From contig JACPKL010000005.1 in the NCBI GenBank assembly GCA_016187035.1, positions 135,150 to 199,149 on the forward strand: a stretch of DNA of 64,000 nucleotides. The letters are read 5' to 3'. Position 1 is the first letter of the stretch. The number at the start of each line of letters is the position of its first letter. Positions 4,166-30,843 of the stretch are shown one piece after another. This DNA comes from Candidatus Daviesbacteria bacterium (GTDB lineage: Bacteria > Patescibacteriota > Microgenomatia > Daviesbacterales > UBA10151). Made by a program: the position numbers and the translations under genes. The notes under the pieces were generated by a model. It saw only the letters and a list, made by a program, of their open reading frames with translations. It had not been told where the DNA came from and did no database searches.

Positions 4166-5941
4166 ATGTATATTTTAGGTTTATATTATGGTCATAATGC
4201 CACAGCCTGTTTAACAAAAGATGGAAGGGTTATAGCAGCTGTTAGTGAAGAAAGATTTAATGGGATAAAAAATTACAAAGGTTTTCCTAAGAATGCTATA
4301 GATTATTGTTTATCAGAAGTCGGAATTAAGTCTTCTGAATTAGATTTGGTAGTGCGTTCAAATAGGATTGGTATCCCAATTCATGTTCCACCTGATTTTA
4401 GGAAAGATTTCAGCATAAATTTTTTGTATTTACTTCATAAATTCATCAATCCATTTAGAAAGTTGTATGGTGAGCTTGCTTTTAGATATCCTAATATGGA
4501 AGTAATAGGGGAATTCTTTTATACTCTTGCTGTAAGGACAATAGGAAGATTAGCAATGGAGAGGGAAAAAGAAGCTATTGCAAAGGAATTAGATTTACCT
4601 AAAAAAAAGATACTTTTTTTGGATCATCATCTTTGCCATGCATTTATTGCCTCTGTAGTTTCACCTTTTAATCAAGAGAAAAATCTGGTAATGGTTTTAG
4701 ATGGAGAAGGGGATGACTGTTCTGCCAGTATTTACATTTTTGATAGGAGCAAATATAGATTGATTTCAAGATCATCAAGGAATAGTTCTTTAGGTGCAGT
4801 TTATGCTTATGTAACCGAGTTTTTAGGAATGAAATCAAACGAACATGAATATAAAGTTATGGGTCTTGCACCATATGCTAAGTTGGAGGATGTAGATAAA
4901 ATTTATAAGAAAATAAAGGACATTATTTTTTTTGATGAAAAGAACCCATTAATTTTTAAGTCAAAATTTAATACTAAAGATATTCTGAAATATCTAGACA
5001 GAGAATTTAAAAGAATAAGATTTGATTTGATTGCAGGAGTGGTCCAGAAGTTGACTGAAGAAAGAATTATTGAGTGGATTGAAGCAGCAATAAAAGTTAC
5101 CGGAATCAAAACAGTAATATTATGTGGTGGAGTATTTATGAATGTTAAAGTAAATCAAAAGATTTCTCAACAGAAGAGCGTTAAAAAACTATTTATCATG
5201 CCAAGTTGCGGTGACGAGTCGACTCCTTTGGGAGCGTGTCTTTATGCCTTAATAAATCAATTTAAATTTGGCACCCAAAATATCAAGCCTATTAAAGATA
5301 TATATTGGGGGCCGCAATTTTCCGATGAGGAGGTAGAGAGAGTTATCAAGGGGAGAAAAATTGGGGATAAATTTTCTGTTAAAAAGGTTAAAGATATAGA
5401 AAAAGTAACTGCTAAGTTGCTTTCAGAAGGTAAGATAGTAGCAAGGCTGAAAGGCAGAATGGAATTTGGAGCTAGGGCTTTAGGAAACCGATCTATACTT
5501 GCAAACCCTTCAGACCCGGAAGTAGTAAGAGTAATTAATGAGCAAGTAAAAAATAGGGATTTTTGGATGCCTTTTGCTCCGACTATTCTCCAAGAAAGGG
5601 CAAAGGATTATTTAATAAATCCAAAGCGTATAGATTCTCCATTTATGATGTTGGGTTATGATTCAACTTCTATTGCCAGAAAAGAATTAAAAGCTGCTAT
5701 GCACCCATATGATTTTACCTTAAGACCTCAAATTTTAAACGAGGATTATAACCCTGATTATTATAGATTAATTAAAGAATTTGAAAGATTAACAGGTATA
5801 GGAGCTGTACTAAATACCTCATTTAATCTACATGGATTTCCAATAGTATTAGGTCCTAGAGAAGCCTTAGATGCTTTTGAAAATTCCAGTTTAGAGCATA
5901 TGACATTAGAGGATTATATTATTTCAAAGAAATCAATTTAG
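4166..5941 (+). CDS. O-carbamoyltransferase, NodU/CmcH/TobZ family
   Basis: MYILGLYYGHNATACLTKDGRVIAAVSEERFNGIKNYKGFPKNAIDYCL is the characteristic N-terminus of this family. The 591-aa length fits. Confidence 0.85.
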   Translation: MYILGLYYGHNATACLTKDGRVIAAVSEERFNGIKNYKGFPKNAIDYCLSEVGIKSSELDLVVRSNRIGIPIHVPPDFRKDFSINFLYLLHKFINPFRKLYGELAFRYPNMEVIGEFFYTLAVRTIGRLAMEREKEAIAKELDLPKKKILFLDHHLCHAFIASVVSPFNQEKNLVMVLDGEGDDCSASIYIFDRSKYRLISRSSRNSSLGAVYAYVTEFLGMKSNEHEYKVMGLAPYAKLEDVDKIYKKIKDIIFFDEKNPLIFKSKFNTKDILKYLDREFKRIRFDLIAGVVQKLTEERIIEWIEAAIKVTGIKTVILCGGVFMNVKVNQKISQQKSVKKLFIMPSCGDESTPLGACLYALINQFKFGTQNIKPIKDIYWGPQFSDEEVERVIKGRKIGDKFSVKKVKDIEKVTAKLLSEGKIVARLKGRMEFGARALGNRSILANPSDPEVVRVINEQVKNRDFWMPFAPTILQERAKDYLINPKRIDSPFMMLGYDSTSIARKELKAAMHPYDFTLRPQILNEDYNPDYYRLIKEFERLTGIGAVLNTSFNLHGFPIVLGPREALDAFENSSLEHMTLEDYIISKKSI

Positions 5942-7254: not shown

Positions 7255-8220
7255 ATGAATCTTGTTGGTAAAAAAATAGCAATTCCAGGAGGTACAGGTT
7301 TTTTTGGTTCACATATTATTGATAAATTAAAGGATATTAAATGTGAAGTTTTTGTCCCAGAACGTTCGAAGGGAATTGATTTTAGAAACAGAGAGGATTG
7401 TCGTAAATTTTTTGAACAGACAAAACCGGAGATAGTAATTAATTGTGCAGCTTTTCAAGGAGGAATTGGATTCCACTTAGGTAAACAAGCGGACCTTTTT
7501 ATGGATAATATTTTAATGGGATGTTTTCTTATGGAGGCAGCACAAAAGGTGGGAGTAAAAAAATTTGTAAATATTGTAGCTGGCTGTGCGTATCCTGGTT
7601 ATTTAGAAAAAGATATTTTAGATGAAACAGATTTTTGGGACGGTGATCTTCATGATTCGATTTTCAGTTATGGTTTTTCCAGAAAAGCGACCATTGTTTA
7701 TGGTAAGGCTCTCTATAGGCAATATGGTTTTAATTCTATCCACTTAGTCTTCGCAAATATGTATGGTCCCCGCGATCATTTTAACCCTTCTCGGAGCAAA
7801 GCTTTAGACGGTCTCATAAGAAAGATTTATGAAGCTAAGAGGGATAAGCTACTTACAGTTGAAATTTGGGGGAGTGGAAAACCTTTACGTGATTGGCTGT
7901 ATGCAAAAGATGGGGCAGATGGTGTTTTAAGAGCAGTTGAAATCTATGATAGGATTGATCCCTTAAATATAGCAACAGGAAAAGGAATTTCTGTAAGGGA
8001 GTTAGCAGAAACTGTCAAAAGAGTGGTAGGTTATTCAGGTAAGTTTGTATATAATACCCAAAAGCCAGACGGTGCCCTAAAAAAAGTTTTTGGAGTTAGA
8101 AAAATGAAAACTATCTTAAAATGGGAGCCTAAGACAAATATAGAGCAAGGGATAAGAGAAACTGTTAAGTGGTATGTCAAAAATTCTGGAAAGGGAAAAC
8201 AGGAGAACTATGGACTTTAG
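7255..8220 (+). CDS. GDP-L-fucose synthase-like (Fcl/GER1 family) NDP-4-keto-6-deoxyhexose epimerase/reductase
   Basis: GGTGFFGSHI Rossmann motif. NMYGPRDHFNPSRSKALDGLIRKIYEA, IWGSGKPLRDWLYAKD and KPDGALKK align by eye with E. coli Fcl ([51 protein letters not shown]). Confidence 0.7.
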   Translation: MNLVGKKIAIPGGTGFFGSHIIDKLKDIKCEVFVPERSKGIDFRNREDCRKFFEQTKPEIVINCAAFQGGIGFHLGKQADLFMDNILMGCFLMEAAQKVGVKKFVNIVAGCAYPGYLEKDILDETDFWDGDLHDSIFSYGFSRKATIVYGKALYRQYGFNSIHLVFANMYGPRDHFNPSRSKALDGLIRKIYEAKRDKLLTVEIWGSGKPLRDWLYAKDGADGVLRAVEIYDRIDPLNIATGKGISVRELAETVKRVVGYSGKFVYNTQKPDGALKKVFGVRKMKTILKWEPKTNIEQGIRETVKWYVKNSGKGKQENYGL

Positions 8221-8238
8221 TATACTGATTTTATTGAA

Positions 8239-9381
8239 ATGAAAAAAAGAGATTACGAGATTGACGATAAAATTATACGCACCTGGTCTACGTTTGTCCC
8301 TGACGAAGCCATTACAGAAGTTGCAAATACATTACGGTCAAAGTGGATTAACACAGGTAAGAAAGAAAAGGAATTAAGGGGAAAAGCATCTCGTAAATGG
8401 GGTTTTCCTTATTGTGTCGCTGTAAATAGTTGTACCTCCGCATTGCGCGCTAGTTTAGCTATACTTAATGTTAAACCGGGAGATGAAGTGATATCTACTC
8501 CTTTTACATTTATTGCTACCAATACCGTAATCCTTGAGCAAGGAGCGAAACCTGTTTTTGCCGATATTAAATATGACGACCTTAATATAAACCCCAAAAG
8601 CATTGAAAAAAAAATTACGCGTAGGACAAAAGCTATAATCGTTGTACATTATAGTGGTAACCCCTGTGACTTAGATGAAATACGGGAAATTGGAAGAAAA
8701 CACAATCTTCCAGTTATAGAAGATGCTGCTCATTCCATGGGTAGTATGTATAAAGGAAAATATATCGGTGCAACAGGAGATATTGTATGTTTTTCTCTCC
8801 AGGTTGTAAAACTTATTACCTCTGGAGATGGTGGATTAATTGCAACGAACAACAAAGACTATTATCAAAAACTAAAAAAAATAATTTGGTATGGAATAGA
8901 TAGAGATACTAAAATAACAAATTTACTTAATCCTTTACCAGAAAATTTTCGAGGAGATGTCCTTGGATTTAAGTATAATATGAATGATATTATTGCTACT
9001 CTTGCCTCTGTGGGGATTGATCATTTTGAGGAAGTGGCAACAAGAAGGCAAATCGTCGGACAGCGATATAGAGAAGAACTCGCAGACTGTCCGAAAATAA
9101 AGCTCATGAAATATTACAATGACAGAAAACCAAATTATCAAATGTTTCCTATTCATGTCGAAAACCGCGTTCGTTTTGCAAAGTATTTGCTTAAACACAA
9201 TATTATGTTAAGAATCAATAATCGCCGTAATGATATTTATCCTATGTTTGGGGGACTCCGAAATGATTTACCTATGACTACTCGAGTAGATCAAGATGTG
9301 GTTTTGCTCCCAATGCATGCAGATCTTACAGATAAACAGATAAGCTATATAATTCAAAAGGTTAAAGATGCTGTGAAATAA
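8239..9381 (+). CDS. DegT/DnrJ/EryC1/StrS-family PLP-dependent sugar aminotransferase
   Basis: Family-typical layout, with FSLQVVKLITSGDGGLI carrying the Schiff-base lysine context (compare FS.h..K.it.GeGG) and EDAAHSMG upstream. Confidence 0.85.
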   Translation: MKKRDYEIDDKIIRTWSTFVPDEAITEVANTLRSKWINTGKKEKELRGKASRKWGFPYCVAVNSCTSALRASLAILNVKPGDEVISTPFTFIATNTVILEQGAKPVFADIKYDDLNINPKSIEKKITRRTKAIIVVHYSGNPCDLDEIREIGRKHNLPVIEDAAHSMGSMYKGKYIGATGDIVCFSLQVVKLITSGDGGLIATNNKDYYQKLKKIIWYGIDRDTKITNLLNPLPENFRGDVLGFKYNMNDIIATLASVGIDHFEEVATRRQIVGQRYREELADCPKIKLMKYYNDRKPNYQMFPIHVENRVRFAKYLLKHNIMLRINNRRNDIYPMFGGLRNDLPMTTRVDQDVVLLPMHADLTDKQISYIIQKVKDAVK

Positions 9382-9431
9382 ATTATTCTGCTTTAGCATG
9401 AAATCAAATACCATAAAGAAAAGTATAAGGA

Positions 9432-10217
9432 ATGAATAAAATAAGAAGATCGTTAGCTATTTTAGGTGCGAATGGTTTATTAGGTAAAGATCTTACAAGG
9501 TATTTAGCAGATAAATTTGATATTACTCCGATTACCCGGGAGAACTATGAACATCAAAAAGAGAAAGAATTCGATGTATTTATTAATGCAAACGGTAACA
9601 GCAGGCGTTTCTGGGCACTACAAAATATATATAAAGATTTTGAGGCTTCTACAGTGTCGGTTTATAAAACTCTCTTTGATTTTAAATTTAAGAAGTATAT
9701 ATATTTCTCATCGGTTGATGTCTATGCAAATCCTGGAAGGCCGAAAAACACCTCAGAAGACGATATGATTGATGTTAGCAATCTTAATAATTATGGCTTC
9801 CATAAGTATTTAAGCGAACAGATTATTAAAAATGCTTTAGACGATTACATAATTTTACGCCCGTCGATGATTATCGGTAAAAATCTTAAAAAAGGACCAT
9901 TCTTCGACATTATAAAGGGTAAACCATTGTTTATGACTCCAGATAGCAGATTACAGATTATTACCACTTTTGCAATATCCGAGATAATTAGTATGTTAAC
10001 AAGTAGAATGATTAAGAATGAAATATTTAATATAGGTGGTGAAGGGGCAGTTTATTTTGTTAATATTAGTGAGTATTTTGAAGTTTCTATTAAGTGGTCT
10101 AATAATGCAGTAGAGCAGTATTATGAAATGAATGTGTCTAAGTTGAAGGCACAATATAACCTTAAGACTTCAGAAGATTATCTAAAGGACTGGTTAAGTG
10201 AACAAAAAGAAGTTTAA
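9432..10217 (+). CDS. Short extended-SDR, NAD(P)-dependent sugar epimerase/reductase-like
   Basis: LAILGANGLLGKDL Rossmann loop and a YGFHKYLSE (YxxxK) catalytic motif; 261 aa. Confidence 0.6.
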   Translation: MNKIRRSLAILGANGLLGKDLTRYLADKFDITPITRENYEHQKEKEFDVFINANGNSRRFWALQNIYKDFEASTVSVYKTLFDFKFKKYIYFSSVDVYANPGRPKNTSEDDMIDVSNLNNYGFHKYLSEQIIKNALDDYIILRPSMIIGKNLKKGPFFDIIKGKPLFMTPDSRLQIITTFAISEIISMLTSRMIKNEIFNIGGEGAVYFVNISEYFEVSIKWSNNAVEQYYEMNVSKLKAQYNLKTSEDYLKDWLSEQKEV

Positions 10218-11145
10218 ACACATATTAATAACAGGAGGAGCAGGATATGTCGGCGTGCCGACTGTTTCTTTATTGCTTGAAAAAGGATACAAGGTGACAG
10301 TTATTGATAACCTGATGTGGACAGGAAATGTCCTTTTGCCATTTTTATCAAACACAGGCTTCAATTTTATTAAAGGAGATATACGTAGCAAAAAAGAACT
10401 GACAGATTCATTTGAGGATATAGATATAGTTATTCATTTGGCAGCAATAGTGGGTTTTCCTGCTTGTAGGAAATATCCTAAAGAATCACGGGAGATTAAT
10501 GTTGACGGCACTCAGCATGTTGTAGATTTTGCAAAAGGGAAAATCCCGATAATCTTTGCTTCAACAGGGAGCACGTACGGGAAAATTATTGAGAAATATT
10601 GTACAGAAACAACTCCACTTAACCCACTTTCACACTATGGTAAGCAAAAAGCAGAAGCGGAAGATATTATAAAAACAAACGATAGTTTTATAATATATCG
10701 TTTTGCAACCGCGTTTGGTGTTTCTCCCCGCATGCGTTTAGATTTATTGATTAATGATTTTGCTTTTAGGGCCGTCAGTGAAAAAACATTAATTGTATAC
10801 GAAAAAGAATTTATGAGAACGTTTATTCATGTAAAGGATATGGCCCGTTCTTTTTTATTCGCTTTAGAAAATTTTGATAAGATGAATAAAGAGATTTATA
10901 ACGTGGGTGACGAGAGATTGAATGTTAGTAAGGAAGAAGTTTGTAGATTGCTCCAAAAATATGTGGAATTTTATTTGCATTTCGTGGAGGTAGGACATGA
11001 TATTGATCAAAGAGATTACATGGTTGATTACTCGAAAATACAAAAAGTAGGGTATGATACAACAATTAGTATAGAAGAAGGCATAAAGGAACTTATTAAA
11101 CTTTCCGATATTATCAAGATTGAAAATCCCTACAGTAATGTATAA
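10198..11145 (+). CDS. NAD-dependent epimerase/dehydratase family protein
   Basis: GTG start, then HILITGGAGYVGVP Rossmann loop and HYGKQKAEAE (YxxxK). Overlaps the upstream gene by 20 nt. Confidence 0.75.
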   Translation: MNKKKFKHILITGGAGYVGVPTVSLLLEKGYKVTVIDNLMWTGNVLLPFLSNTGFNFIKGDIRSKKELTDSFEDIDIVIHLAAIVGFPACRKYPKESREINVDGTQHVVDFAKGKIPIIFASTGSTYGKIIEKYCTETTPLNPLSHYGKQKAEAEDIIKTNDSFIIYRFATAFGVSPRMRLDLLINDFAFRAVSEKTLIVYEKEFMRTFIHVKDMARSFLFALENFDKMNKEIYNVGDERLNVSKEEVCRLLQKYVEFYLHFVEVGHDIDQRDYMVDYSKIQKVGYDTTISIEEGIKELIKLSDIIKIENPYSNV

Positions 11146-11147: not shown

Positions 11148-13229
11148 ATGCAAGCTTTCTTCCAAAAGAATTTTAAGCTTCTTTTAATTCCAATAATTTG
11201 TTCAATGATTATCCTTTCCTGGTTTTATCAGGGTAAAATAATTTCCAACACTAGCGAAGAGCAATTGAGTATATATCATCCTCAGAATGATGCTAAAAAC
11301 TACTCTAACTTTTGGTTTCCACCGGGAATAGGCCAGAAGGGTCCATTTCAATTTGTAAAGTTCCCTGTTTTTTATGGATTGGGTTTGCTTGAGCACAGAG
11401 GTATGCCTGCTTTTTTAAGACAGGCTTTATTGCTTTGGCTCTTGATGGTAGCAGGAGTATTTTTTATGTTTCTCTTGCTTAGGAGAGGTTTTGAAGTCCC
11501 AACTATTTTTTCCCTGGTAGGCGGTTTTTTTTACTTACTAAATATATATTCAATGACTCAAGTTTGGAAAAGATTCCTCTACCACGGGATGTTTGCCTGG
11601 GTATATTTGCCTTTATTTCTACTGCTATGGATTGAATGGGTAAATAGCAAAAAATTTATTTGGCTATTTTTTTTCCTCTTTTCTTCATTTTTCTTTACAT
11701 ATAGTTTTACTCAGCCTGCTAATCTAATTACTATATGGGTTCCCGCAGGGATTTTTACACTAGTTCAAATTTGGCAATACGGTATAAAAACTAAAGAAGC
11801 AAAAAACATCCTTATAAAATCAATAATTGGACTTGTCCTTTGGTGTCTGGTTAATATTTGGTGGTTATACCCTGAGCTCTATTTGGGAAGCACTTGGACA
11901 CAGACAACTGGTGAAACTTTGAGCTATAATCTTAACTCACTACAGACAGTTAGTAGGGATTTTCCAATTTGGGAAATTCTTTTACTCAGGCAAGGTTGGT
12001 ACCTGAGTCCTAAAAATGACTTCGGAGGTTTTTATCAAAATATACCTATTATTTTTATAAGCATATTAATATTATATTTTGTGATTTTAGCTGTTGTTAA
12101 ATTAAGAGAGTTTCGTTATAGATCTTTTGTATTGGTTTTGGGATTTGTTGGCTTTTTTGTAAGTAAAGGTGCTAATTTCCCTTTCGGTAATGCATTTTTC
12201 TATTTACTCTTTTCTAATCTTAATTTTACTACAGCATTTAGAAATCCTTATGAGAAATTTGGAATAGTCTGGTTACTTGTGTATACAATATTATTTACAC
12301 TTGGATTTTCAAGATTCTTATCCTCATTAAAAGCTAATAAGCCTGTTTTTTTAGGTGGAGTCATTTTATTTCTAATTTTGGTATTGGTTTTCCCTTTTTG
12401 GAGTGGAGGAGTATTTCCTCAAAAACATAGGCTAAATGTGCCCAAATATTACGATGAGGCAAATGACTATTTGAATCAGCAATCCAGTGATAGACTTTTT
12501 CATATCCCGTTTTTATTAGAATTGGAGAATTTAACCTATTCTTGGGGATTTGTGGGGGGAGACCCGACACCCGCTCTGTTTAATCTGGAGACAATAACAG
12601 CACCCAAGAAGCCACTTTATTATCAGATTTCCCTCTTATTGCCAAAATATTTGAGTAATAAACAATTTCCTAAAATATTAGGTTTACTGGGTGTAGGAAA
12701 TGTTATCGTACATAAAGAAAGTGTTTACCCAACAATAAACTTAAAAGAAATGACAAAAAATATTGAAAATTGGGCAGACATTCAAAATAAAAAAGAAATA
12801 GGAGAATTAGTAATTTACTCTTTAGATAAGGAAATAATTAAGCCAAGAGTTTATGCTGCTATTTCCTCAATTTCAGTGAATTCAATAGAGGAGATGTTGG
12901 GAGAAGTTATGTCTGGTAATGTTGATACAAAAAAAGAAGTTTTTATGATAGGTGATAATACAACACCTTTAACTGCTTCAACTAAAGCATCTCCTCAAAT
13001 TATTTTTAATAAACTGTCCAATGACCATTTCTTAGTAGTTGTTAATAAAGCAACATTACCATTTATATTGGTTTTTAATAATACTTTTGATAAATCTTGG
13101 CAATTACGAATAGATAATCAAATTATAGATAAACACTTTATTGTTAATGGCTTTGCAAATGGATGGTTAATTGATAAGAAAGGTGACTACAAACTGGATA
13201 TTAAACTAAAGGTGTGGCCTTGGGATTAA
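11148..13229 (+). CDS. GT-C-type polytopic membrane glycosyltransferase candidate, AftD(DUF3367)/YfhO-like, paralog 1 (no C-terminal anchor)
   Basis: Many TM segments. Shares VWKRFLYHG, SKGANFPFG...FRNPYEKFG and the C-terminal PFILVFNNTFDKSWQL...NGFANGWLIDKKGDYKLDI with the ORFs at 14173, 53900 and 57743. Confidence 0.6.
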   Translation: MQAFFQKNFKLLLIPIICSMIILSWFYQGKIISNTSEEQLSIYHPQNDAKNYSNFWFPPGIGQKGPFQFVKFPVFYGLGLLEHRGMPAFLRQALLLWLLMVAGVFFMFLLLRRGFEVPTIFSLVGGFFYLLNIYSMTQVWKRFLYHGMFAWVYLPLFLLLWIEWVNSKKFIWLFFFLFSSFFFTYSFTQPANLITIWVPAGIFTLVQIWQYGIKTKEAKNILIKSIIGLVLWCLVNIWWLYPELYLGSTWTQTTGETLSYNLNSLQTVSRDFPIWEILLLRQGWYLSPKNDFGGFYQNIPIIFISILILYFVILAVVKLREFRYRSFVLVLGFVGFFVSKGANFPFGNAFFYLLFSNLNFTTAFRNPYEKFGIVWLLVYTILFTLGFSRFLSSLKANKPVFLGGVILFLILVLVFPFWSGGVFPQKHRLNVPKYYDEANDYLNQQSSDRLFHIPFLLELENLTYSWGFVGGDPTPALFNLETITAPKKPLYYQISLLLPKYLSNKQFPKILGLLGVGNVIVHKESVYPTINLKEMTKNIENWADIQNKKEIGELVIYSLDKEIIKPRVYAAISSISVNSIEEMLGEVMSGNVDTKKEVFMIGDNTTPLTASTKASPQIIFNKLSNDHFLVVVNKATLPFILVFNNTFDKSWQLRIDNQIIDKHFIVNGFANGWLIDKKGDYKLDIKLKVWPWD

Positions 13230-13235
13230 TTTTTA

Positions 13236-14105
13236 TTATTTCTTTTTCAGAACAATTAGGCCTAAGGGAGATTCTTCAATAAAATAAAAGATAATCTCTA
13301 AGATAAATACTAAGGGCGCTCCGATTAATAAAAAAAGAAGCTTAGGAATATTTTTTATAAAACCCAGTCTTAGATTAAGAGTAGAAATGCCAAGCATTTG
13401 TCCGATAGAGGCTAGTAAGCAATAAGGGGAATACTGAAAAGACATAATTTCTGTCTGAGTTACTATTTTGAGGTTTACACGATTTGCGATATTTTTTAAC
13501 CCTTCTTCTGTAAAATGGAATAGATGTCTTGGAATATCACGTTGAAGCCAATGTTTTCCTAGGATTTTTGATTCCAATGAGCCGAACCTAGGATATTCTA
13601 CAAAGATAAACCCACCTTTCTTTAATAGTGAAGCTGCTTTTTTAAGATATTGAGCGGGATTGGTAACATGCTCTAAACTTTCTAAAAAGACAATTGCATC
13701 AAATTTTTCATTAGTTTTCCAATTTAAAAAATTTACCTTAATAACATCTTTATTTTCAACTTTAGCCCCTGGATATTCTAAATTTGTCACATTAAACGCT
13801 TGTCCTAGTATTTGTCCAAAAACACCTTCTCCAGATCCTACATCCAATATGTCTCCCCTTGACATATATCTTCTAAACCAGCCGGCTCTTAACTTCTGGA
13901 AAGAATTATGTATACACTGTCTTAAAAAGGAAAATCTACCTAAATTTTGCCAATAAATCTTTGGATAATACTCAGATATATCTTTTGGAAAAGGATGAAC
14001 AAATCCATTTTTACAATTATTACAGAAGTAAAGATTGAACTGTCCGGAATCCATAAGATCAATATGCCTGCTTTCTTTGCAAATTGGACAAATTATCTTT
14101 GCCAT
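13236..14105 (-). CDS. Class I SAM-dependent methyltransferase with N-terminal Cys4 zinc ribbon and hydrophobic C-terminal tail
   Basis: CPICKE...CNNCKNG zinc ribbon. ILDVGSGEGVFG is SAM motif I, followed by GGFIFVEYP. The C-terminus LLFLLIGAPLVFILEIIFYFI is hydrophobic. Confidence 0.75.
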   Translation of the reverse strand: MAKIICPICKESRHIDLMDSGQFNLYFCNNCKNGFVHPFPKDISEYYPKIYWQNLGRFSFLRQCIHNSFQKLRAGWFRRYMSRGDILDVGSGEGVFGQILGQAFNVTNLEYPGAKVENKDVIKVNFLNWKTNEKFDAIVFLESLEHVTNPAQYLKKAASLLKKGGFIFVEYPRFGSLESKILGKHWLQRDIPRHLFHFTEEGLKNIANRVNLKIVTQTEIMSFQYSPYCLLASIGQMLGISTLNLRLGFIKNIPKLLFLLIGAPLVFILEIIFYFIEESPLGLIVLKKK

Positions 14106-14172
14106 AAGGTGTAATTATACTTTCTTTTACTTTCAAAAAATAGTATATTGGTATCAAAAATAGCCACTATTA

Positions 14173-16389
14173 ATGATAAAAATAATAGTCCTCATTTTGA
14201 TAATACCCTCTATTATAATAGGTTTGTGGTTTAAAGATGGCTATATTCTTGGAACAGCAGAGGATGGTTTACCTTTCTACAATTTATCACATTTTAAACC
14301 AGAGGCAGATTTTGCCTGGATGGAGCATCCGGGTTTAGGAAGAAGTACACTATATTTAACCGCCTCAAAGCCTACCTACATGATAATGACCTGGTTACAA
14401 AATAAAGGATTACCTGGTTTCATTATTCAGGCAGGAGTATTGTGGTTGATGTTTGTAATTTCGGGAATAGGAATATATTTTTTAACCCAGGAATTTTTCC
14501 CTAAACTTCCTAAGACTTACTTAATTTTATCAATCCTTTTTTACTGGTTTAATCCCATCTCATTAGTTAACGTATGGAACAGATTTCTGCTTGATTATAT
14601 TTCCTTTTACAGCATGTTACCCATGGTTTCTTTTCTATTTATTAATGGGCTAAAAACAAAAAAATATATATGGAGCATTGTATTCACAATAGTTATTCTC
14701 TTTTATTCATATTCATTTAACTACCTAGCTTTTTTTATTCTAATTTGGCTGATTCTTTTTATTTGGACAGTTTTTTTCTTTCTGTTGACAAAAAATGGAT
14801 CAATCCGCTTTTTTTATATAAAGTATTTTTTATTAGCATTTGCTTTTTTTGTTTTAACAAATGCCTGGTGGGTAAGTCAATTGGTAGGATTTCAAACTCT
14901 CAAGGATTTTGATTCTTCGATCCATGATATTACAACTGATATAAATTCTGGAATTTTTAATGCATTAAGTAAGAGCATGGGTAATTTAAATGATGTGTAT
15001 AGATTAAACAATGCCTCTTTTTTTAAAAATGACTCGCTTTCCTGGGTAAAGCCGTTCTACTCCGTACCAATTGTTTTTGCAGAATTTATTGTGACGGCTA
15101 TAATGTTTTGGTCTATTTTAAAAAATAAAAAAGATATTTCTGTACTGATTCTTGCCGGAGTTTTTTTTACAGGCATTTTTTTAGCAAAAGGCAATAACCC
15201 TCCTTTAGGAGGAATCTTTGAATTCCTTTTTAAGAATTTTTTATTCCTCCAAATTTTCCGAAATCCTTTTGAGAAATCAGGATTTATTTTGCTTTTGGCA
15301 GCAACTCCGCTATTAAGTTTTGCAATTTTTAAAGTTAGTGAAACTTTGAAACCCCTTTATCGAAAATTAATTTATACTGTTTGTTTAATTTATATAGTTT
15401 TGGTTTGGGGATACCCATTTTACACAGGGTTTGTATTAACTTCCAAATTTCCACCAACAAATAATTATGAAATAGGTTACAAGGTGAAGGTTCCTGAGTA
15501 TTACCATCTGGCTGATGATTGGTTGGTTAAGCGGGGCACAAATTTTAGAACAATAGGATTCCCAATAGAAGATGAGGCCGTAACTTATAAGTGGGAAAAG
15601 GGTTATTCAGGAGTTGAATTATCAACTGCCTTATTTTCTAATCCGGTAATTTTACATAAAACCGGGGTACCATTCTTTTATGATCTTGTACCCCAGATTC
15701 AAAAGACTCTTTTAGGGGAAGAAGAGATTTACAAATTGGCTAATATTCTTAACGCCAGATATTTGTTTGTTCGCGAAGATATTGATTTCAAAGAGAGAAA
15801 AATGGTTGACCCTTTAATCATAAAACAAAAATTATCTTCAAGGGAGAGAATGGGTCAGATAAGGAAAGTGGGCGAATTTGGAAAATTAACTTTTTGGGAA
15901 AATTTAAAATGGAAAGATTTAACATTTTACCCTGCGAATTTAATCAAGTTATCAACCAGTCAAGATCCATCTAACCTATCATCTATTGATGCACTTTCTG
16001 GAGAAGTGTTGGCTGATAAAAAGTATGAATTTGGAGATGTAAACGATTCATTAGATAATTTAAAAATTACATATGAAAGAATTAATCCAACAAAGTATAT
16101 TGTTCATATTCAGGAAGCAGCCTCACCGTTTGTATTAGTTTTTTCGGAATTATTTAATGGAGGCTGGAAAATTACTTCCGAGGAGGGAGGAAAATCTTAT
16201 GACCATTTTAGGGTTAATTATTATGCTAATGGATGGTTAATTGATAAAAAAGGAAACTATGATCTGACAGTTGAATTTAGTCTTCAAAAGTGGTTGGACA
16301 TAGGAGAAAAAATTTCAATAATAAGCTTTCTTGTAGTGCTTTGCCTATTAATTTATTTACTTTGGAAAAATAAACAAAGGAAAACCTAA
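14173..16389 (+). CDS. GT-C-type polytopic membrane glycosyltransferase candidate, AftD/YfhO-like, paralog 2
   Basis: LFYWFNPISLVNVWNRFL (18 aa identical to the ORF at 53900), AKGNNPPLG...FRNPFEKSGF, and C-terminal PFVLVFSELFNGGWKI...YANGWLIDKKGNYDL followed by a C-terminal TM helix. Confidence 0.65.
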   Translation: MIKIIVLILIIPSIIIGLWFKDGYILGTAEDGLPFYNLSHFKPEADFAWMEHPGLGRSTLYLTASKPTYMIMTWLQNKGLPGFIIQAGVLWLMFVISGIGIYFLTQEFFPKLPKTYLILSILFYWFNPISLVNVWNRFLLDYISFYSMLPMVSFLFINGLKTKKYIWSIVFTIVILFYSYSFNYLAFFILIWLILFIWTVFFFLLTKNGSIRFFYIKYFLLAFAFFVLTNAWWVSQLVGFQTLKDFDSSIHDITTDINSGIFNALSKSMGNLNDVYRLNNASFFKNDSLSWVKPFYSVPIVFAEFIVTAIMFWSILKNKKDISVLILAGVFFTGIFLAKGNNPPLGGIFEFLFKNFLFLQIFRNPFEKSGFILLLAATPLLSFAIFKVSETLKPLYRKLIYTVCLIYIVLVWGYPFYTGFVLTSKFPPTNNYEIGYKVKVPEYYHLADDWLVKRGTNFRTIGFPIEDEAVTYKWEKGYSGVELSTALFSNPVILHKTGVPFFYDLVPQIQKTLLGEEEIYKLANILNARYLFVREDIDFKERKMVDPLIIKQKLSSRERMGQIRKVGEFGKLTFWENLKWKDLTFYPANLIKLSTSQDPSNLSSIDALSGEVLADKKYEFGDVNDSLDNLKITYERINPTKYIVHIQEAASPFVLVFSELFNGGWKITSEEGGKSYDHFRVNYYANGWLIDKKGNYDLTVEFSLQKWLDIGEKISIISFLVVLCLLIYLLWKNKQRKT

Positions 16390-16601
16390 TGTTTTATTGG
16401 ATAGTTCTAATTCTTATTATTGGAATAATGTTTTTCCTAAAAAAGGATTCAAAATTTTACTTATTTACTGCCTTTTACATTTTCTGCGTGGGCGCAATAC
16501 TTAGGATAATTTGGTTAAATGAAGTATCAGAAATTTTAATGAGGATGAGTTTTATTTTTTGGTTAGTTGGACTTTTTAAAGCTTTCAAAGAAGTTAACTA
16601 G
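16389..16601 (+). CDS. Small membrane protein (70 aa, 2 predicted TM), member A of a four-copy family linked to large GT-C genes
   Basis: Its start overlaps the upstream stop (TAATG). An ungapped hand alignment to residues 36-104 of the ORF at 57369 gives 29/69 identities, including FYW, FYL, AIL, MR.S.I.WL.GL. Confidence 0.6.
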   Translation: MFYWIVLILIIGIMFFLKKDSKFYLFTAFYIFCVGAILRIIWLNEVSEILMRMSFIFWLVGLFKAFKEVN

Positions 16602-16840: not shown

Positions 16841-18433
16841 CTAAGTACCTTCAGGGGATAAGGATTTTAAAATATTTTTCCTGGTAATTTCACTTGTATT
16901 TATTAATTTATCTGTTCCTTCAAGATTAAAACTATAAATATTTTCAATAGGTAAAGGTTTTGGTAATACGCTAAATCTTGCAAGAGATTTGCCATCCTTG
17001 ACTGCAGAGATTAAATCCTTAAAATTATCAATAGTTACAACTGTTTTAAAATCTGATATATTGTGGATTAATTGTAGCTTAGAGGGTAGTCCGAACTCTA
17101 ACACATTATGTATAATGTCTCTCCGCTCACCTGTAAAGTAGAATACTAAAGGCCTTTCTGTTTTACCGATATTTTTAAATTCAGGAAGTTGTGACCAAAT
17201 TTTATCGTAAAGTTGCTGACTTCTTATTTGTTCCAAATTACTAAAGTAAGACCTTGTTGAATATATATTCATTATTAGTACTAATGATAATAAGGCAATA
17301 ATTACGTTTCTTGATTTTTTGCTTTGCCCTAAGCTAATAAGACTTGCAAATAATATACTAATGCCAATCGCAGGAAGTATTAAATATCTCTGGTCAGTTG
17401 AAAATATACTCGTTAAATACTCTGGTCTCATCCACGGTATCAAAAAAGCAAAGAAGGTCCAAATTAAAGAAATAATTAATGCATCTAAAATTTTAGATTT
17501 CCTGTTTAAGATTATAAGTAAAAACCATATAACAATAGATAAGCCTCCGATGAATGTTGATAACGCTTTATTCTCATTACCTACTGAAATATTTGGGATA
17601 ATCATTCCTCCTAATGCAGCAATCGGGTTAAGGAGAAAATCTACTTGTCCTTTTTGAATTAAATTGTACCCTGCTTTGAAACTAGTTAGAGTTACGTTTG
17701 TTAATGCTTGAGTGGAATTAGTTATGGTTTGATTATCCCAATCGTGTGGGGAAGAAAATAAGTTAGTCTGAGTTAATAAAATTAGGTAGATTAATGAAAT
17801 TATTGTTAATCTAGTAACTACTTTTTTTAACATTTCAAAAGTTCGATGGTTTAAAAACCAAATAATCTCTATCATAACAATGAAAGGAACAATGCTCATT
17901 GACCGTATAGGATAAATAACTATAGTGGCAAAAAAAAATAGAGTAAAATAAACGACCCATTTAATTTGGTAATTATCTCTTGATTTTAGGAAGAAATACA
18001 GAAATAAATTAAAAAAGAGAACTAGCAAATACGTGGGCATATGAAAGACCCAGTCGGTTGTTTCGAGGCCAATAGTAGTTATGGAAAAAAAAAGGACAGC
18101 AAAAAAAGAAGCTAATGTATTTCTAGTTAAATAGAAAGCTAAGGGATAAAGAGAAAAAGAGGCTAGAAGTCTAAATAAGTATGAGGTGATGTAATAAGGT
18201 GAAGGATTATAGTGGTAAATTTTAAACAAAAATCCATTAAGAATATCTTGAGATCCAAAAAGGGTGAAAAAATAAGTTGGGTAATTCCAAGCTCCTATGG
18301 AAAATTGGCCTACCATTCTTTCATACCTCCAAATAACGAGCCAAAAATCTCCAAATAGAGAAAGATTGAAGGAGGGATAGAAGGCATAGAGACTAATTGA
18401 AATTGTAGTAAAGATTAAAAAAATTAAATACAT
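16841..18433 (-). CDS. Polytopic membrane protein, PMT_2/ArnT-like GT-C candidate (divergent member)
   Basis: 530 aa with many TM segments. SLFGDFWLVIWRY follows TM1. YHYNPSPYYITSYLFRLLASFSLYPLAFYL parallels the FGLN..YH.. helix of the six-paralog family. The tail is degenerate: IENIYSFNLEGTDKLINTSEI. Confidence 0.55.
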   Translation of the reverse strand: MYLIFLIFTTISISLYAFYPSFNLSLFGDFWLVIWRYERMVGQFSIGAWNYPTYFFTLFGSQDILNGFLFKIYHYNPSPYYITSYLFRLLASFSLYPLAFYLTRNTLASFFAVLFFSITTIGLETTDWVFHMPTYLLVLFFNLFLYFFLKSRDNYQIKWVVYFTLFFFATIVIYPIRSMSIVPFIVMIEIIWFLNHRTFEMLKKVVTRLTIISLIYLILLTQTNLFSSPHDWDNQTITNSTQALTNVTLTSFKAGYNLIQKGQVDFLLNPIAALGGMIIPNISVGNENKALSTFIGGLSIVIWFLLIILNRKSKILDALIISLIWTFFAFLIPWMRPEYLTSIFSTDQRYLILPAIGISILFASLISLGQSKKSRNVIIALLSLVLIMNIYSTRSYFSNLEQIRSQQLYDKIWSQLPEFKNIGKTERPLVFYFTGERRDIIHNVLEFGLPSKLQLIHNISDFKTVVTIDNFKDLISAVKDGKSLARFSVLPKPLPIENIYSFNLEGTDKLINTSEITRKNILKSLSPEGT

Positions 18434-20578: not shown

Positions 20579-21669
20579 TGGATGGGAATAAAGATGCAAT
20601 CGAAAAAGGAGATTTAGGATATATTCATAACAAAGCTTCCGAAGAATTCAAAATTCTGAGCGGGAGTACAATTCTTTTTACAGGAGTTAATGGTTTTTTA
20701 GGATATTATTTTGTCAAATCTATTCTTGCTTGGAATAATATTTACCCGGCTAAAAAAATTATCGTATATGCACTGGATACTTTTAAAGCAAGAATACCAA
20801 AGTGGCTACAAAAAAGGGATGATGTAAAGATTCTTAAAAAAGATATAATAAAATACAAGCCATCCTCGGGTATAAGTTTTGACTATATTATCCACGCAGC
20901 CTCTATTGCCTCTCCAATTTTTTATCGTAAATATCCAGTAGAAACAATAAATGCCAATGTCATAGGTCTTTATAACATCTTATCCTATATGGTTAAGAAA
21001 CAAAAAACTATCAGAAAAGTTAAAGGATTATTATTTTTTTCATCTAGTGAAATATATGGAGATCCTACAGAAGGTAATATTCCGACTCCTGAAACTTATC
21101 GGGGAAACGTTTCCTGTGTCGGACCCAGAGCTTGCTATGATGAGTCAAAAAGATTTTGTGAAACGTTATGTGTTAATTATTCCAAAGTTTATAATCTTCC
21201 CATAAAAACAGCCAGGCCTTTTAATAATTTCGGACCGGGTTTAAAGATTACTGACGGTAGAGTTATTCCAGACTTTGCCAATGATATACTGCAAAATAAA
21301 GATATTACTCTGTTTTCTCAAGGATCACCTACCCGTACCTTCTGTTATATTACCGATGCTGTAGTAGGCTATATAAAGATCCTTATTAAAGGTAGGTGGG
21401 GTGAAGCATATAATATCGGCGTTGAAAGGGAGGAAATATCAATGATTGATTTAGCAGAAAAAATGAAAAATATAGCTATAAGGCACTTTGGATACTCAGG
21501 AAAGATAATAAGAAAAAAAAGTAAGGATCAGGAATATTTAACAGATAGTCCAAATCGTCGGTGTCCGCAAATAACCAAAGCAAAAAAAGAATTAGGGTAT
21601 GATCCACAAATAACATTGGATGAAGGATTAACTAATACACTGATTTGGTATGGGGAAAATATACGATGA
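20578..21669 (+). CDS. UDP-glucuronate decarboxylase (UXS/ArnA-decarboxylase)-like extended SDR
   Basis: SSSEIYGDP...GPRACYDESKRFCETLCVNY...ARPFNNFGPG...DGRVIPDF matches the UXS signature (STSEVYGDP...GPRACYDEGKRVAETMCYAY...ARIFNTFGP...DGRVVSNF). The preferred start is the ATG at 20578, which overlaps the rfbF stop (TAATG). Confidence 0.7.
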   Translation: MDGNKDAIEKGDLGYIHNKASEEFKILSGSTILFTGVNGFLGYYFVKSILAWNNIYPAKKIIVYALDTFKARIPKWLQKRDDVKILKKDIIKYKPSSGISFDYIIHAASIASPIFYRKYPVETINANVIGLYNILSYMVKKQKTIRKVKGLLFFSSSEIYGDPTEGNIPTPETYRGNVSCVGPRACYDESKRFCETLCVNYSKVYNLPIKTARPFNNFGPGLKITDGRVIPDFANDILQNKDITLFSQGSPTRTFCYITDAVVGYIKILIKGRWGEAYNIGVEREEISMIDLAEKMKNIAIRHFGYSGKIIRKKSKDQEYLTDSPNRRCPQITKAKKELGYDPQITLDEGLTNTLIWYGENIR

Positions 21670-23021
21670 AAATATCAATTGTAGGTACAGGTTATGTAGG
21701 TTTAATTACAGGATTATCTCTGGCGCTTTTAGGCCATCAGGTTATTTGTGTTGATAGTGACCAAAACAAAATTTCCAAAATAAATAATGGTTACTCCCCT
21801 TTCTATGAACCGGGGATGGATAAACTTCTTAAAAAAGAAGTAGCTAAAAAATTCCTTCAAGCAACAAATAATCTAGAAAGATCTATTTTGGAGTCCTCTG
21901 TAACTATTATTGCTGTGGGTACTCCCACAATTAAAAATAAAATTGATTTATCTTATATAAAAGTTGCTGCCAGACAAATAGGCGAGGCATTAGCTAAAAG
22001 TAAGAAATATCATGTAGTTGCGGTTAAGTCTACAGTTTTACCCGGAGTTACAGAAAGATTAGTTAAACCAATATTAGAAAAATATTCCAAAAAGAAGGTT
22101 GGCAACAATTTTGGAATATGCATGAACCCAGAATTTTTGAGAGAGGGATGTGCAATAGAAGATGCATTACATCCAGATAGAATTGTAATTGGTCAAATTG
22201 ACGAAAAAAGCGGGAAAGAATTTGCCAAGATCTATAAGAAAGTTTCCGCTCCAAAAATATTTACTAATCTTTGGACGGCTGAAATGACAAAGTACTCTGC
22301 TAATGCATTACTGGCTACACTAATCAGTTTTTCAAATGAAATTGCCAGAATAGCAGAACAGACCGGTAAAGTTGATATTGTTGATGTTTGGCAGGGAGTA
22401 CACTTAGACAGAAGACTCAGTCCATATTATGGTAATAAGAGAATCAAACCCGGAATACTGAATTATATTTTTTCCGGATGCGGCTATGGAGGCAGTTGTT
22501 TCCCTAAAGATATCCAGGCGCTAGCCACTTTTGCAAAGGAATTGGGAAATCCCGCTCCTTTGCTTAATTCAGTTATCAATATCAATAAAACCCAGCCGCA
22601 CAGACTAGTTTTACTGCTAAAAAAAGCGCTGGGGGAGAACTTGAAGCAGAAAAAAATTGCTGTTTTAGGCCTTGCCTTTAAGCCTAATACTGACGATGTC
22701 CGTCAGTCACCGGCATTTCCGATTATTAGTCAACTGATTTCTCAGGGAGCTAAAGCCATTGTTCATGATCCAATGGCTTATCAGAAAACAATACCGGAGC
22801 AACTAAATAATCCATCCGTAATACTAGCCAAGAGCACTGAGGAAGCAATCAAAAATGCCGATGCGGTTATTCTGGTCACCGCCTGGAAGGAATACCTCAA
22901 ATTGTCCCCCCATTTCTTTAAGAAAAGTATGAAACTTCCTATTGTGATTGATGGAAGGAGAGTCTACGATAAAGCCTCTTTCTTGCAAGCCGGAATCTTA
23001 TATAAAGGAGTAGGATTATGA
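21666..23021 (+). CDS. UDP-glucose/GDP-mannose dehydrogenase family, canonical (UDP-glucose 6-dehydrogenase-like)
   Basis: MKISIVGTGYVGL Rossmann loop, GYGGSCFPKD catalytic-Cys motif and LGLAFKPNTDDVRQS. The ATG at 21666 overlaps the upstream stop (ATGA). Confidence 0.8.
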   Translation: MKISIVGTGYVGLITGLSLALLGHQVICVDSDQNKISKINNGYSPFYEPGMDKLLKKEVAKKFLQATNNLERSILESSVTIIAVGTPTIKNKIDLSYIKVAARQIGEALAKSKKYHVVAVKSTVLPGVTERLVKPILEKYSKKKVGNNFGICMNPEFLREGCAIEDALHPDRIVIGQIDEKSGKEFAKIYKKVSAPKIFTNLWTAEMTKYSANALLATLISFSNEIARIAEQTGKVDIVDVWQGVHLDRRLSPYYGNKRIKPGILNYIFSGCGYGGSCFPKDIQALATFAKELGNPAPLLNSVININKTQPHRLVLLLKKALGENLKQKKIAVLGLAFKPNTDDVRQSPAFPIISQLISQGAKAIVHDPMAYQKTIPEQLNNPSVILAKSTEEAIKNADAVILVTAWKEYLKLSPHFFKKSMKLPIVIDGRRVYDKASFLQAGILYKGVGL

Positions 23022-24292
23022 ATTATCCTAAACATCATCTAGTAAAAACAGGGTATATCGTCTGTTGTCAAGTATGTGATTCTCGTAAACTTCATATTAT
23101 TCTTGACTTAGGATACCAGCCGTTATGCGACAGTTTGCTAACCAAGGAGAAGCTCAATGAGCCGGAGAAAACCTATCCTCTAAGGATGATGTGGTGTGAG
23201 AATTGCACTCTGGTTCAAATTGATTACTGTGTTTCAGGAGAAGAAGTTTATCACCCGGATTATCCTTACAGAAGCGGGATCACTAAAGAGCTGGCACAGT
23301 ATCAAGAAAGCATGGCCTCATCTTTGGTTAAGGAGTTTAATCTGCAACAAAATGATTTGGTAATAGATGTTGGCTCAAATGACGGCACCCTTCTAAAGGG
23401 ATTCAAAAAGCTGGGAATTAACGTGTTAGGGATAGAACCAACTAATATTGCTAAGATTGCGAATAAAAGTGGAATAAGAACAGTTCAAGCCTTCTTTGAT
23501 ATCAAAACTGCAAAAGAAATTAAGAAAAAATATGGAAACGCTTCTTTAATTATTACAACCAATACATTTGCCCATATGCAAACATTAGGAGAATTTATCA
23601 TGGGAGCATATTACTTATTAAAAGATGAAGGGGTGTTTGTTAACGAGACTCATTACTTATTAGATGTTATAAAAGGGGGGCAATTTGACACCATTTATCA
23701 TGAACACTTAAGAACTTATTCATTAAAATCCCTTATAGCTTTATTTGGCCAATATGATTTTACTGTCACAGATGTTGCAAGAGGGGATAGATATGGAGGG
23801 AATATCCGTGTATATGCAACAAAAGGAAAGGGTAAAAAAGTGAGTCCGCAGGTGAGTAAGTTATTAAGATTAGAGAAAGGATTTGGATTAGACAAACTTG
23901 AAACCTTTAAAAAATTTGCCACTCGTGTTAAAAAAGCCCGGCTGGAGTTTATGGACTTTCTAATTAAAACTAAAATGACTGGTAAAAGTATTGTGGGAAA
24001 CTCCTGTCCTGGCAGGTGTTCAACGCTTTTAAATTATTACGGCGTAGATTCTGAGTTGTTGCCCTATTTGGCTGAACAACCCACCTCCTTAAAATTAAAT
24101 ATGTATTTACCTGGTAAACATATACCTGTTGTAAATAATCAAAGGCTAATTGACGAGCAACCAGATTATGTAGTTATTTTAGCCTGGCATTATGCCAAAC
24201 CTATTATGGAACAATTAAAGATAAGAGGTTTAAAATCAGATTTTGTCATTCCCCTACCGGACTTTAAAATAGTCAAAAACTTAAAGGTGTGA
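23018..24292 (+). CDS. NDP-hexose C-methyltransferase (TylC3-type; zinc-ribbon N-domain, SAM domain, C-methyltransferase C-domain)
   Basis: CQVCDSRKL...LGYQPLCDSLL...MWCENCTLVQI is a Cys4 site. VIDVGSNDGTLL is SAM motif I, followed by FDTIYHEHLRTYSL and a C-terminal ...VVILAWHYAKPIMEQL. The start overlaps the upstream stop (ATGA). Confidence 0.75.
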   Translation: MNYPKHHLVKTGYIVCCQVCDSRKLHIILDLGYQPLCDSLLTKEKLNEPEKTYPLRMMWCENCTLVQIDYCVSGEEVYHPDYPYRSGITKELAQYQESMASSLVKEFNLQQNDLVIDVGSNDGTLLKGFKKLGINVLGIEPTNIAKIANKSGIRTVQAFFDIKTAKEIKKKYGNASLIITTNTFAHMQTLGEFIMGAYYLLKDEGVFVNETHYLLDVIKGGQFDTIYHEHLRTYSLKSLIALFGQYDFTVTDVARGDRYGGNIRVYATKGKGKKVSPQVSKLLRLEKGFGLDKLETFKKFATRVKKARLEFMDFLIKTKMTGKSIVGNSCPGRCSTLLNYYGVDSELLPYLAEQPTSLKLNMYLPGKHIPVVNNQRLIDEQPDYVVILAWHYAKPIMEQLKIRGLKSDFVIPLPDFKIVKNLKV

Positions 24293-30124: not shown

Positions 30125-30211
30125 ATTTTATGACGATTTTAGGGTATATTATTAAAAAGGTCAAGAAAACATTGTAATCACTTGCAAATTGTTATATTCT
30201 TTTGTAGAAAG

Positions 30212-30832: not shown

Positions 30833-30843
30833 GGATTCCCATA

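Follow-up and report, generated by a model that had tools for sequence, protein, structure and literature searches.

Four paralogous membrane proteins in one locus

We analysed a 64-kb stretch of DNA (hereafter, the window) that is part of a 279.5-kb contig in a Candidatus Daviesbacteria metagenome-assembled genome (candidate phyla radiation (CPR)/Patescibacteria, Microgenomates; 32% GC). It encodes four large polytopic proteins, here called P1 to P4, each of which NCBI labels 'hypothetical protein'. A sequence-only reading had proposed that the four form a single family resembling AftD (DUF3367) or YfhO, that they share a set of motifs, and that the first pair flanks a membrane-tailed methyltransferase. 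From profile and fold comparisons, we consider it very probable that P1 to P4 are a divergent, pared-down branch of the AftD/DUF3367 superfamily (PF11847) of GT-C_A membrane glycosyltransferases. The four genes are:

11148-13229, + strand: P1, tail-less AftD-like GT-C, 693 aa (NCBI HYW41_02015)
14173-16389, + strand: P2, short anchored AftD-like GT-C, 738 aa (NCBI HYW41_02025)
53873 (TTG) or 53900 (ATG) to 57382, + strand: P3, long anchored AftD-like GT-C, 1169 or 1160 aa (HYW41_02190)
57743-61207, + strand: P4, long anchored and most divergent paralog, 1154 aa (HYW41_02200)

The similarity among the four proteins is far above chance, and they are true paralogs. By BLASTP, P2 and P3 share 42% identity (E 1e-144 to 1e-149), while P1 is 24-27% identical to the other paralogs (E 1e-33 to 1e-52) and P4 is 25-28% identical to them (E 1e-34 to 1e-65). 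The last ~100 aa of the proteins were found as a separate matching segment (E 1e-6 to 1e-22). A four-way alignment contains 73 invariant columns, with P4 co-linear with P3 along its full length. All of the motifs that had been noted from the sequence were found in this alignment: WF.xG...E after the first transmembrane segment (TM1), VW.RFL, KG..P.G...RNP(F/Y)EK.G, and the C-terminal PF.L....F..W...HF.N..N...I...G.Y. The claim of four ORFs (open reading frames) with a common motif set therefore stands, with paralogy established at BLASTP E-values between 1e-33 and 1e-149.

Orthologs of each paralog are up to 65-79% identical, far nearer than the paralogs are among themselves. Judged by these identities, the duplications predate the diversification of the group, which would make P1 to P4 ancient paralogs. 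The NCBI protein for P3 has 1132 aa, implying a start at ATG 53984. This deposited start is probably wrong, because it would remove TM1 and the conserved WF.DG motif; ATG 53900, which lies 7 nt past the stop of the upstream GT2 gene, or TTG 53873 suits the family alignment better.

P2 and P3 had also been reported to share an identical 18-aa block with about 90% DNA identity, and this observation is real (48 of 54 nt):

14536-14589, + strand: 18-aa block LFYWFNPISLVNVWNRFL of P2, in the TM3/TM4 region, a nearly invariant family motif

The block recurs unchanged in P3 at nt 54269-54322, and all six nucleotide differences are synonymous. Given identical residues and the codon usage of the window, 43.5 of the 54 positions would be expected to match, and the probability of 48 or more is ~0.05. 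The block falls on the motif that is best conserved across the family, and the family consensus carries it. The DNA identity is thus mostly a by-product of a nearly invariant motif under purifying selection, produced by amino-acid conservation together with codon bias. Recent gene conversion was considered and rejected: identity drops to 70%, 61%, and 51% within 30, 60, and 100 flanking codons, and the observed 48 matches are just marginally above expectation.

Sequence profiles, predicted folds, and rival assignments

PF11847 (GT-C_AftD, formerly DUF3367) was the sole Pfam family matched by P1 (13.1 bits, residues 80-477), P2 (23.1 bits), and P3 (23.9 bits). The AftD search was thus sub-threshold for these three proteins, while it was clear in their relatives: PF11847 matches 38 of 46 P2/P3-type sequences (best E 1.7e-17) and all 28 P1-type sequences (best E 2.4e-15), and a minority of P4 orthologs also carry it. 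NCBIfam returned no meaningful match for P1 to P4. When the PDB was searched with a hidden Markov model (HMM) of the P1 subfamily, AftD was recovered (6W98_A, E 8.4e-5), aligned over the soluble GT-C domain. The aligned 6W98 fragment was used to find 80 mycobacterial AftD loci, and 32 full-length orthologs were aligned. Comparison of the P1 subfamily with these 32 sequences in hhalign gave a probability of 95.4% (E 1.7e-8) over 459 co-linear columns, with family positions 87-590 paired to AftD 85-632, a range that takes in the TM domain as well as the soluble GT-C domain. The four-paralog alignment reached 77% against AftD.

Predicted structures point the same way. P2 was modelled with AlphaFold2 (AF2) from the 46-sequence alignment (pLDDT 89, pTM 0.88). 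The model has 11 N-terminal helices in a TM domain (aa 1-420), an alpha/beta domain (~aa 440-600), a beta-sandwich (~aa 610-702), and a terminal TM helix (aa 704-737). Foldseek placed AftD 6W98 first among PDB matches to this model (E 2e-12, query TM-score (TMq) 0.56), followed by STT3 (5e-7), PglB (8e-5), DPY19 (9e-5), and AftA (1e-3), all at probability 1.00; transporters appeared only at probability <0.2. An AF2 model of the soluble part of P3 (aa 436-1145, pLDDT 84), which includes no TM segment, still had AftD as its best Foldseek match (E 4.4e-12), with CBM (carbohydrate-binding module)-bearing glycosidases (GH101) and isolated CBM16 and CBM22 modules next. The proposed membership of the AftD/DUF3367 GT-C group is therefore supported by PF11847 in the relatives, by hhalign, and by the fold match to 6W98. 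The outcome named in advance as fatal to it, no GT-C match or membership of a transporter family, did not occur, as GT-C matches were found and transporters stayed at noise level.

Conserved positions can partly be placed on AftD. E30, R363, E367, and K368 (P2 numbering) are invariant across the 46 P2/P3-type sequences. The acid of the first external loop (EL1), 7 residues past the WF.xG motif that follows TM1, is E30 in P2 and E37 in P1, where it is invariant in the 28 P1-type sequences. Essential residues reported for AftD are K39, D41, E251, K361, and D474 (bioRxiv 10.1101/2019.12.22.885152). In hhalign, the family motif RNP(F/Y)EK pairs with AftD R357-N358-V-H-K361, and the K361 equivalent is invariant (K370 in P1, K368 in P2). 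The conserved acid of W..GY.G.(E/D) pairs with AftD E475 (D472 in P1, E482 in P2), and the invariant EL1 glutamate lies within a few residues of the AftD K39/D41 position.

Several observations weigh against this assignment. All four proteins fall under the Pfam gathering score (26 bits), and P4 has no Pfam match at all. In the PDB search, the four-paralog profile and the 46-sequence P2/P3 profile failed to find AftD, and hhalign of the P2/P3 profile against AftD reached only 60.7% (E 8e-5). The TM-score of the P2 model to AftD is moderate (0.56) and the rmsd is large, because the two proteins differ in domain content. AftD D474 pairs with a non-conserved family position, its neighbour E475 being the conserved acid, while K39/D41 and E251 fall outside the alignment or in its low-confidence parts, so that their equivalents are not confidently placed. 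That the conserved residues come together in a single cavity is an assumption. Finally, no member of the branch has been studied experimentally, and donor, acceptor, and methyltransferase role are all deduced from context.

P1 to P4 resemble AftD (6W98, 6WBX, 6WBY) in the sequence of their parts, namely an 11-TM GT-C core, a soluble alpha/beta domain, a beta-sandwich, and, for the anchored paralogs, a single-helix re-entry (TM12), as well as in the RN..K motif (AftD K361), the acid at the E475 position, and, for P3, a CBM-like beta module. AftD itself has three CBMs, a beta-sandwich, TM12, and a separate acyl carrier protein (ACP)-binding TM13-16 module (bioRxiv 10.1101/2019.12.22.885152). In contrast, identity to it is ~10%, P1 and P2 are half its size (~700 vs 1400 aa) and lack CBMs, and P3 has one jelly-roll and a helical bundle where AftD has three CBMs. 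TM13-16 is absent from all four, no hint of ACP binding was seen, and in P1 TM12 is missing as well. The host is a CPR bacterium rather than an actinobacterium, and the window holds no arabinose-donor pathway. A separate small membrane ORF, a feature not described for AftD, follows each anchored paralog.

P1 begins with a polytopic TM domain, continues into an alpha/beta domain outside the cytoplasm, and ends in a beta-sandwich. P1 and P2 look like a pared-down 'minimal AftD', with core GT-C, soluble domain, and beta-sandwich. P3 has a P2-like core plus a ~430-aa insert ahead of the C-terminal beta-sandwich and TM helix; in the AF2 model, this insert is a five-helix bundle and a CBM-like jelly-roll lying between the alpha/beta domain and the terminal beta-sandwich. 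P3 is thus an AftD-like protein that carries a single CBM-like module. In P4, co-linear alignment places an insert of similar length. Some P2/P3 relatives also match DUF5667 in Pfam.

It is improbable that P1 to P4 are instead oligosaccharyltransferase (OST)-like enzymes of the STT3/PglB/AglB type, glycosylating proteins such as S-layer or pilin subunits. OSTs carry a WWDYG motif just after the last core TM segment, and a conserved W-x-x-G-Y-x-G sits at that place in P1 to P4. STT3 and PglB are also the second-tier fold matches (E 5e-7 to 5e-4) over the TM core and soluble domain, and these enzymes, DPY19 included, have the general GT-C_A catalytic layout in common with P1 to P4. However, WWDYG itself is absent from the four-way alignment, where the segment reads Y.W(E/G).GY.G.(E/D), there is no STT3 Pfam match (nor one for PglB or DPY19), and AftD scores five orders of magnitude better in Foldseek. 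The soluble domain taken alone resembles AftD and not the OST C-terminal domains. The CBM-like jelly-roll of P3 is typical of glycan-binding enzymes, and the acceptor here is probably a glycan rather than a peptide.

Functional AftD orthology, in which P1 to P4 would be arabinofuranosyltransferases building arabinan from decaprenyl/polyprenyl-phospho-arabinofuranose, is very unlikely. AftD is the best PDB match by both sequence profile and fold, and NCBI names two relatives 'alpha-(1->3)-arabinofuranosyltransferase family protein'. Yet identity to AftD is just 9-12% in structural alignments, and its three CBMs and TM13-16 are missing from the architecture. No UbiA-type phosphoribosyltransferase or DprE1-type FAD oxidase domain was seen among the 47 ORFs of at least 150 aa in the window, which instead has heptose, UDP-sugar dehydrogenase, aminotransferase, and GtrB-type genes. 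For this reason we read the NCBI name as a family name only, a label carried over from Pfam/NCBIfam with no tested activity behind it, and arabinofuranosyl specificity of P1 to P4 has no support in the window. DprE2 is a short-chain dehydrogenase/reductase (SDR), and such an enzyme could hide among the many SDRs present.

We also consider it highly doubtful that these proteins belong to the YfhO family, as in the teichoic-acid glycosylation of Firmicutes by CsbB/GtcA/YfhO. NCBI names one P1 ortholog 'YfhO family protein', the organism is a monoderm-type CPR bacterium with a GtrB/CsbB-like GT2, and the mechanism proposed below is functionally the same kind of extracytoplasmic glycosylation. PF09586 (YfhO), though, was matched neither by P1 to P4 (E<=1) nor by the 46 P2/P3 relatives (E<=0.01) or the 28 P1 relatives (E<=1), and no solved YfhO structure appeared among the fold matches of P2. 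With PF11847 present in most relatives and PF09586 in none, the YfhO half of the original proposal was rejected. The three-component systems (GtrA/GtrB/GtrC, CsbB/GtcA/YfhO, and GT136; PMC11127046) do resemble this locus in pairing a GT2 polyprenyl-phosphate sugar synthase with an extracytoplasmic GT-C, and some of their GT-C members carry CBM domains (PMC11127046). They differ in that no GtrA-, SMR-, or MATE-type flippase was recognised by Pfam next to the P1 to P4 genes, the small adjacent ORFs lacking any GtrA/GtcA-type domain, in that the GT-C here is AftD-like rather than YfhO/GtrC/GT136-like, and in having one serotype-converting enzyme where this locus has four paralogs.

It is scarcely credible that P1 to P4 are polytopic proteins of the transporter, flippase, or polymerase/ligase type whose likeness is confined to hydrophobic motifs: many MFS/SLC transporters do occur low in the Foldseek list, with no direct evidence beyond that, but at E>0.03, probability <0.2, and TM-scores of ~0.1, while the conserved charged motifs sit in loops and the soluble domain, and the AftD homology covers TM and soluble GT-C domains alike.

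C-terminal anchors, small membrane ORFs, and conserved gene order

A hydropathy scan gave ~9-11 hydrophobic segments per paralog; P2, P3, and P4 each end in a single TM helix, which P1 lacks. Together with helix 704-737 of the P2 model, this bears out the earlier remark that P1 is the only paralog without a C-terminal anchor. P1 ends in ...LKVWPWD, and six bases (13230-13235) separate it from the stop of a convergent methyltransferase gene. Its ~60 orthologs (682-704 aa) likewise have no C-terminal TM helix, and the P1-subfamily consensus ends in KVWPWD, as P1 itself does. Because of these lengths and this shared ending, the tail-less form is a fixed feature of the orthogroup and no truncation artefact. 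The further suggestion that the soluble domain of P1 could be free or released was not upheld. The domain is covalently continuous with the 11-TM domain; release is unsupported because it is just the far C-terminal end that has no second anchor, and no sign of cleavage was seen.

Directly behind each anchored paralog, and overlapping it, lies a small membrane ORF:

16389-16601, + strand: 70-aa ORF, ~3 TM segments, its ATG overlapping the P2 stop; putative P2 partner
57369-57692, + strand: 107-aa ORF, ~4 TM segments, 14-nt overlap with the P3 end; putative P3 partner
61204-61545, + strand: 113-aa ORF, ~4 TM segments, 4-nt overlap with the P4 stop; putative P4 partner
L085 3843-4181 and 10413-10754, L086 6661-7014 and 10473-10808: partner ORFs in two related loci

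The 70-aa ORF is missing from the NCBI annotation and was present only in Logan gene calls; 72-aa orthologs follow the P2 ortholog in two other Daviesbacteria loci (L001 14606-14824, L003 14747-14965). At the position of the P3 partner, L085 has a 112-aa ORF that is a clear homolog and L086 a more divergent one of 117 aa, while orthologs of 113 and 111 aa (39-45% identical) occupy the P4-partner position in L085 and L086. The P2 partner is homologous to the P3 partner (E 4e-13), and the P4 partners form a conserved sequence family of their own, distinct from these. A kinship between the two partner families was tried and rejected (hhalign ~0.1%, BLAST non-significant). Homology to TM13-16 of AftD was rejected likewise (hhalign probabilities ~0.1%), as were GtrA-, SMR-, or EamA-type flippases, for which no consistent Pfam match was seen even at E<=10.

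In L001, L003, L085, and L086, anchored paralogs are always trailed by a small ORF and the tail-less P1 never is. This strict co-occurrence suggests that the C-terminal TM helix and the small partner may physically interact. A more speculative extension, which we regard as rather unlikely, is a 'split AftD' in which the small ORFs (70-72 aa for P2, 107-117 for P3, 111-113 for P4) would be translationally coupled, obligate subunits. The small subunit would dock on the C-terminal TM helix and replace the fused TM13-16 module of AftD, perhaps delivering the donor lipid or acting in regulation, with P1 working without one. If true, this organisation would be undescribed for any GT-C enzyme.

Two further genes adjoin the paralogs:

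13236-14105, - strand: class-I S-adenosylmethionine (SAM) methyltransferase, 289 aa, Methyltransf_23 (Pfam, E 3.5e-22)
53026-53892, + strand: GT2 glycosyltransferase, 288 aa (Pfam, E 1.4e-30), directly upstream of P3

The methyltransferase gene is convergent with P1 and divergent from P2, and its product, which NCBI names 'class I SAM-dependent methyltransferase', has an N-terminal Cys4 ribbon, the Methyltransf_23 domain, and a hydrophobic C-terminal tail. The description of P1 and P2 as flanking a membrane-tailed methyltransferase was accordingly correct. Orthologs hold the same position in the Daviesbacteria loci L001-L004 at 66-67% identity, markedly more conserved than the flanking GT-Cs, which are only 45-52% identical across Daviesbacteria. 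In these genomes an SDR directly precedes the P1 ortholog, with DegT upstream of the SDR in L003 and GT2 in L001; L003 has an SDR-DegT-SDR-P1 run without the short 261-aa SDR. Downstream of the P1 orthologs lie one to three convergent methyltransferases, always including the 287-297-aa membrane-tailed enzyme, and relatives have one or two additional methyltransferases at this place. The P2 ortholog and the 72-aa ORF come next, and in L003 and L004 the other strand also encodes a polytopic protein of 522 aa. Orthologs of P3 and P4 likewise adjoin one another elsewhere (L085, L086), and in L085 a 288-aa GT2 lies directly upstream of the P3 ortholog.

A glycan gene island and the proposed role of P1 to P4

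Almost all of the 47 ORFs of at least 150 aa in the window have sugar-nucleotide, glycosyltransferase, methyltransferase, or polytopic-membrane assignments. Besides the genes above, the main features are:

7255-11145, + strand: four nucleotide-sugar modification genes (Pfam), ending 2 nt before P1
51250-52200, - strand: GtrB-type polyprenyl-phosphate glycosyltransferase, a GT2 with C-terminal TM helices (Pfam Glycos_transf_2)
21645-23021, 27171-28469 (- strand), and 45805-47121: three UDP-glucose/GDP-mannose dehydrogenase paralogs
4166-5941, + strand: carbamoyltransferase (Carbam_trans_N/C)
23018-24292 and 48061-49353, + strand: two sugar C-methyltransferases (Methyltransf_13/14)
29336-33762: nucleotide-heptose-type set (transaldolase, HAD phosphatase, nucleotidyltransferase, SIS isomerase, GHMP kinase)
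34604-36475, 36472-38370, 38376-40280, 40289-42130 (- strand), 43892-45781, and 49355-51253 (- strand): second paralog family
16841-18433 (- strand) and 61542-63044 (- strand): distant relatives of the second paralog family

The four genes ahead of P1 encode an SDR epimerase/dehydratase, an ArnB-like DegT aminotransferase (8239-9381, + strand; best PDB match ArnB, E 1.8e-56), and two further SDRs. One of these SDRs, at 10198-11145, has as its best PDB match 6VO6 (E 2.9e-79), which we take to be the GDP-heptose C4-dehydrogenase Cj1427 of C. jejuni. The GtrB-type enzyme matches the Synechocystis polyprenyl-phosphate glucosyltransferase GtrB over its full length (5EKP, E 3.3e-63) and ArnC structures at ~E 1e-23 to 1e-24; its gene lies 1.7 kb upstream of P3. 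With this GtrB ortholog the island has a source of the lipid-linked donor that GT-C enzymes require, and it is likely the supplier for those encoded here. The DegT/ArnB-like aminotransferase, the three dehydrogenases, and the GtrB/ArnC-like GT2 form a loose echo of the 4-amino-4-deoxyarabinose (Ara4N; Arn) lipid-linked amino-sugar pathway. The carbamoyltransferase and the two C-methyltransferases point to heavily decorated sugars, and the nucleotide-heptose-type set, taken together with the 6VO6 match of the SDR beside P1, suggests modified heptoses in the glycan. Several other methyltransferases and GT1/GT4 and GT2 enzymes are also found in the window.

A second paralog family consists of six polytopic proteins of ~613-634 aa with 24-50% identity. 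It had no Pfam match even at E<=1 and no PDB sequence match. Past TM1 its members share a YGF..DDW motif that includes an invariant Asp, and the family compares weakly with the N-terminal TM domain of the AftD-like family (hhalign probability 73%, E 3e-5). It probably represents a further GT-C family that has yet to be classified, and its novelty may exceed that of the AftD-like paralogs.

By analogy with solved GT-C enzymes, P1 to P4 would bind a polyprenyl-phosphate-sugar donor at the membrane/periplasm interface. A GT2, for instance the GtrB ortholog, would make this donor on the cytoplasmic side, after which it would be flipped. The EL1 acid would be the catalytic or metal-binding residue, RNP(F/Y)EK would supply the lysine equivalent to AftD K361, probably for phosphate binding, with its arginine also serving catalysis or phosphate binding, and W..GY.G.(E/D), right after the last core TM segment, would correspond to the AftD D474/E475 region. 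An inverting transfer outside the membrane would then add the sugar to a growing surface glycan. The CBM-like module of P3, with a counterpart presumed in P4 from co-linearity, would serve to hold a polymeric acceptor. For the membrane-tethered methyltransferase, the likeliest task is O-methylation, on the cytoplasmic side, of a lipid-linked sugar or of the nascent glycan.

The mycobacterial Emb/Aft enzymes offer a parallel, being several paralogous GT-Cs that presumably act in sequence on one complex envelope glycan. As in that set, multiple GT-C paralogs occur here in one organism, some with CBMs; those enzymes, however, span several GT-C families, whereas P1 to P4 all belong to one. As with the Aft/Emb set, the likeliest division of labour is that the four paralogs each contribute a different residue or linkage to a single complex heteroglycan.

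The family as a whole is large: among 1.84 billion cluster representatives, its profile found 11,246 at E<=1e-3, 8,022 at E<=1e-10, and 2,937 at E<=1e-30. Relatives are already PF11847-tagged in public resources. A literature search returned no paper on GT-C enzymes in CPR bacteria, and none with DUF3367 among the matches listed. P1 to P4 are thus new, divergent, but fairly ordinary members of a large, partly catalogued family, and they do not overturn current understanding. What is gained in annotation is that four 'hypothetical' proteins can, with good confidence, be placed among the GT-C glycosyltransferases of the AftD superfamily, and that the deposited start of P3 can be corrected. The 'minimal AftD' form of P1 and P2 could also suit structural study better than the 1400-aa mycobacterial relative, which is a drug target.

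Of most interest are the minimal architecture, the small partners with their conservation, and the amount of glycan machinery that a reduced genome encodes. CPR genomes are typically ~1 Mb, and a 64-kb stretch given over almost entirely to glycan assembly is an unusually large investment for such a bacterium. Four AftD-like GT-Cs together with six to eight unclassified polytopic proteins imply that the cell surface carries a complex heteroglycan, which may be methylated and aminated and contain heptose and which could matter for host attachment.

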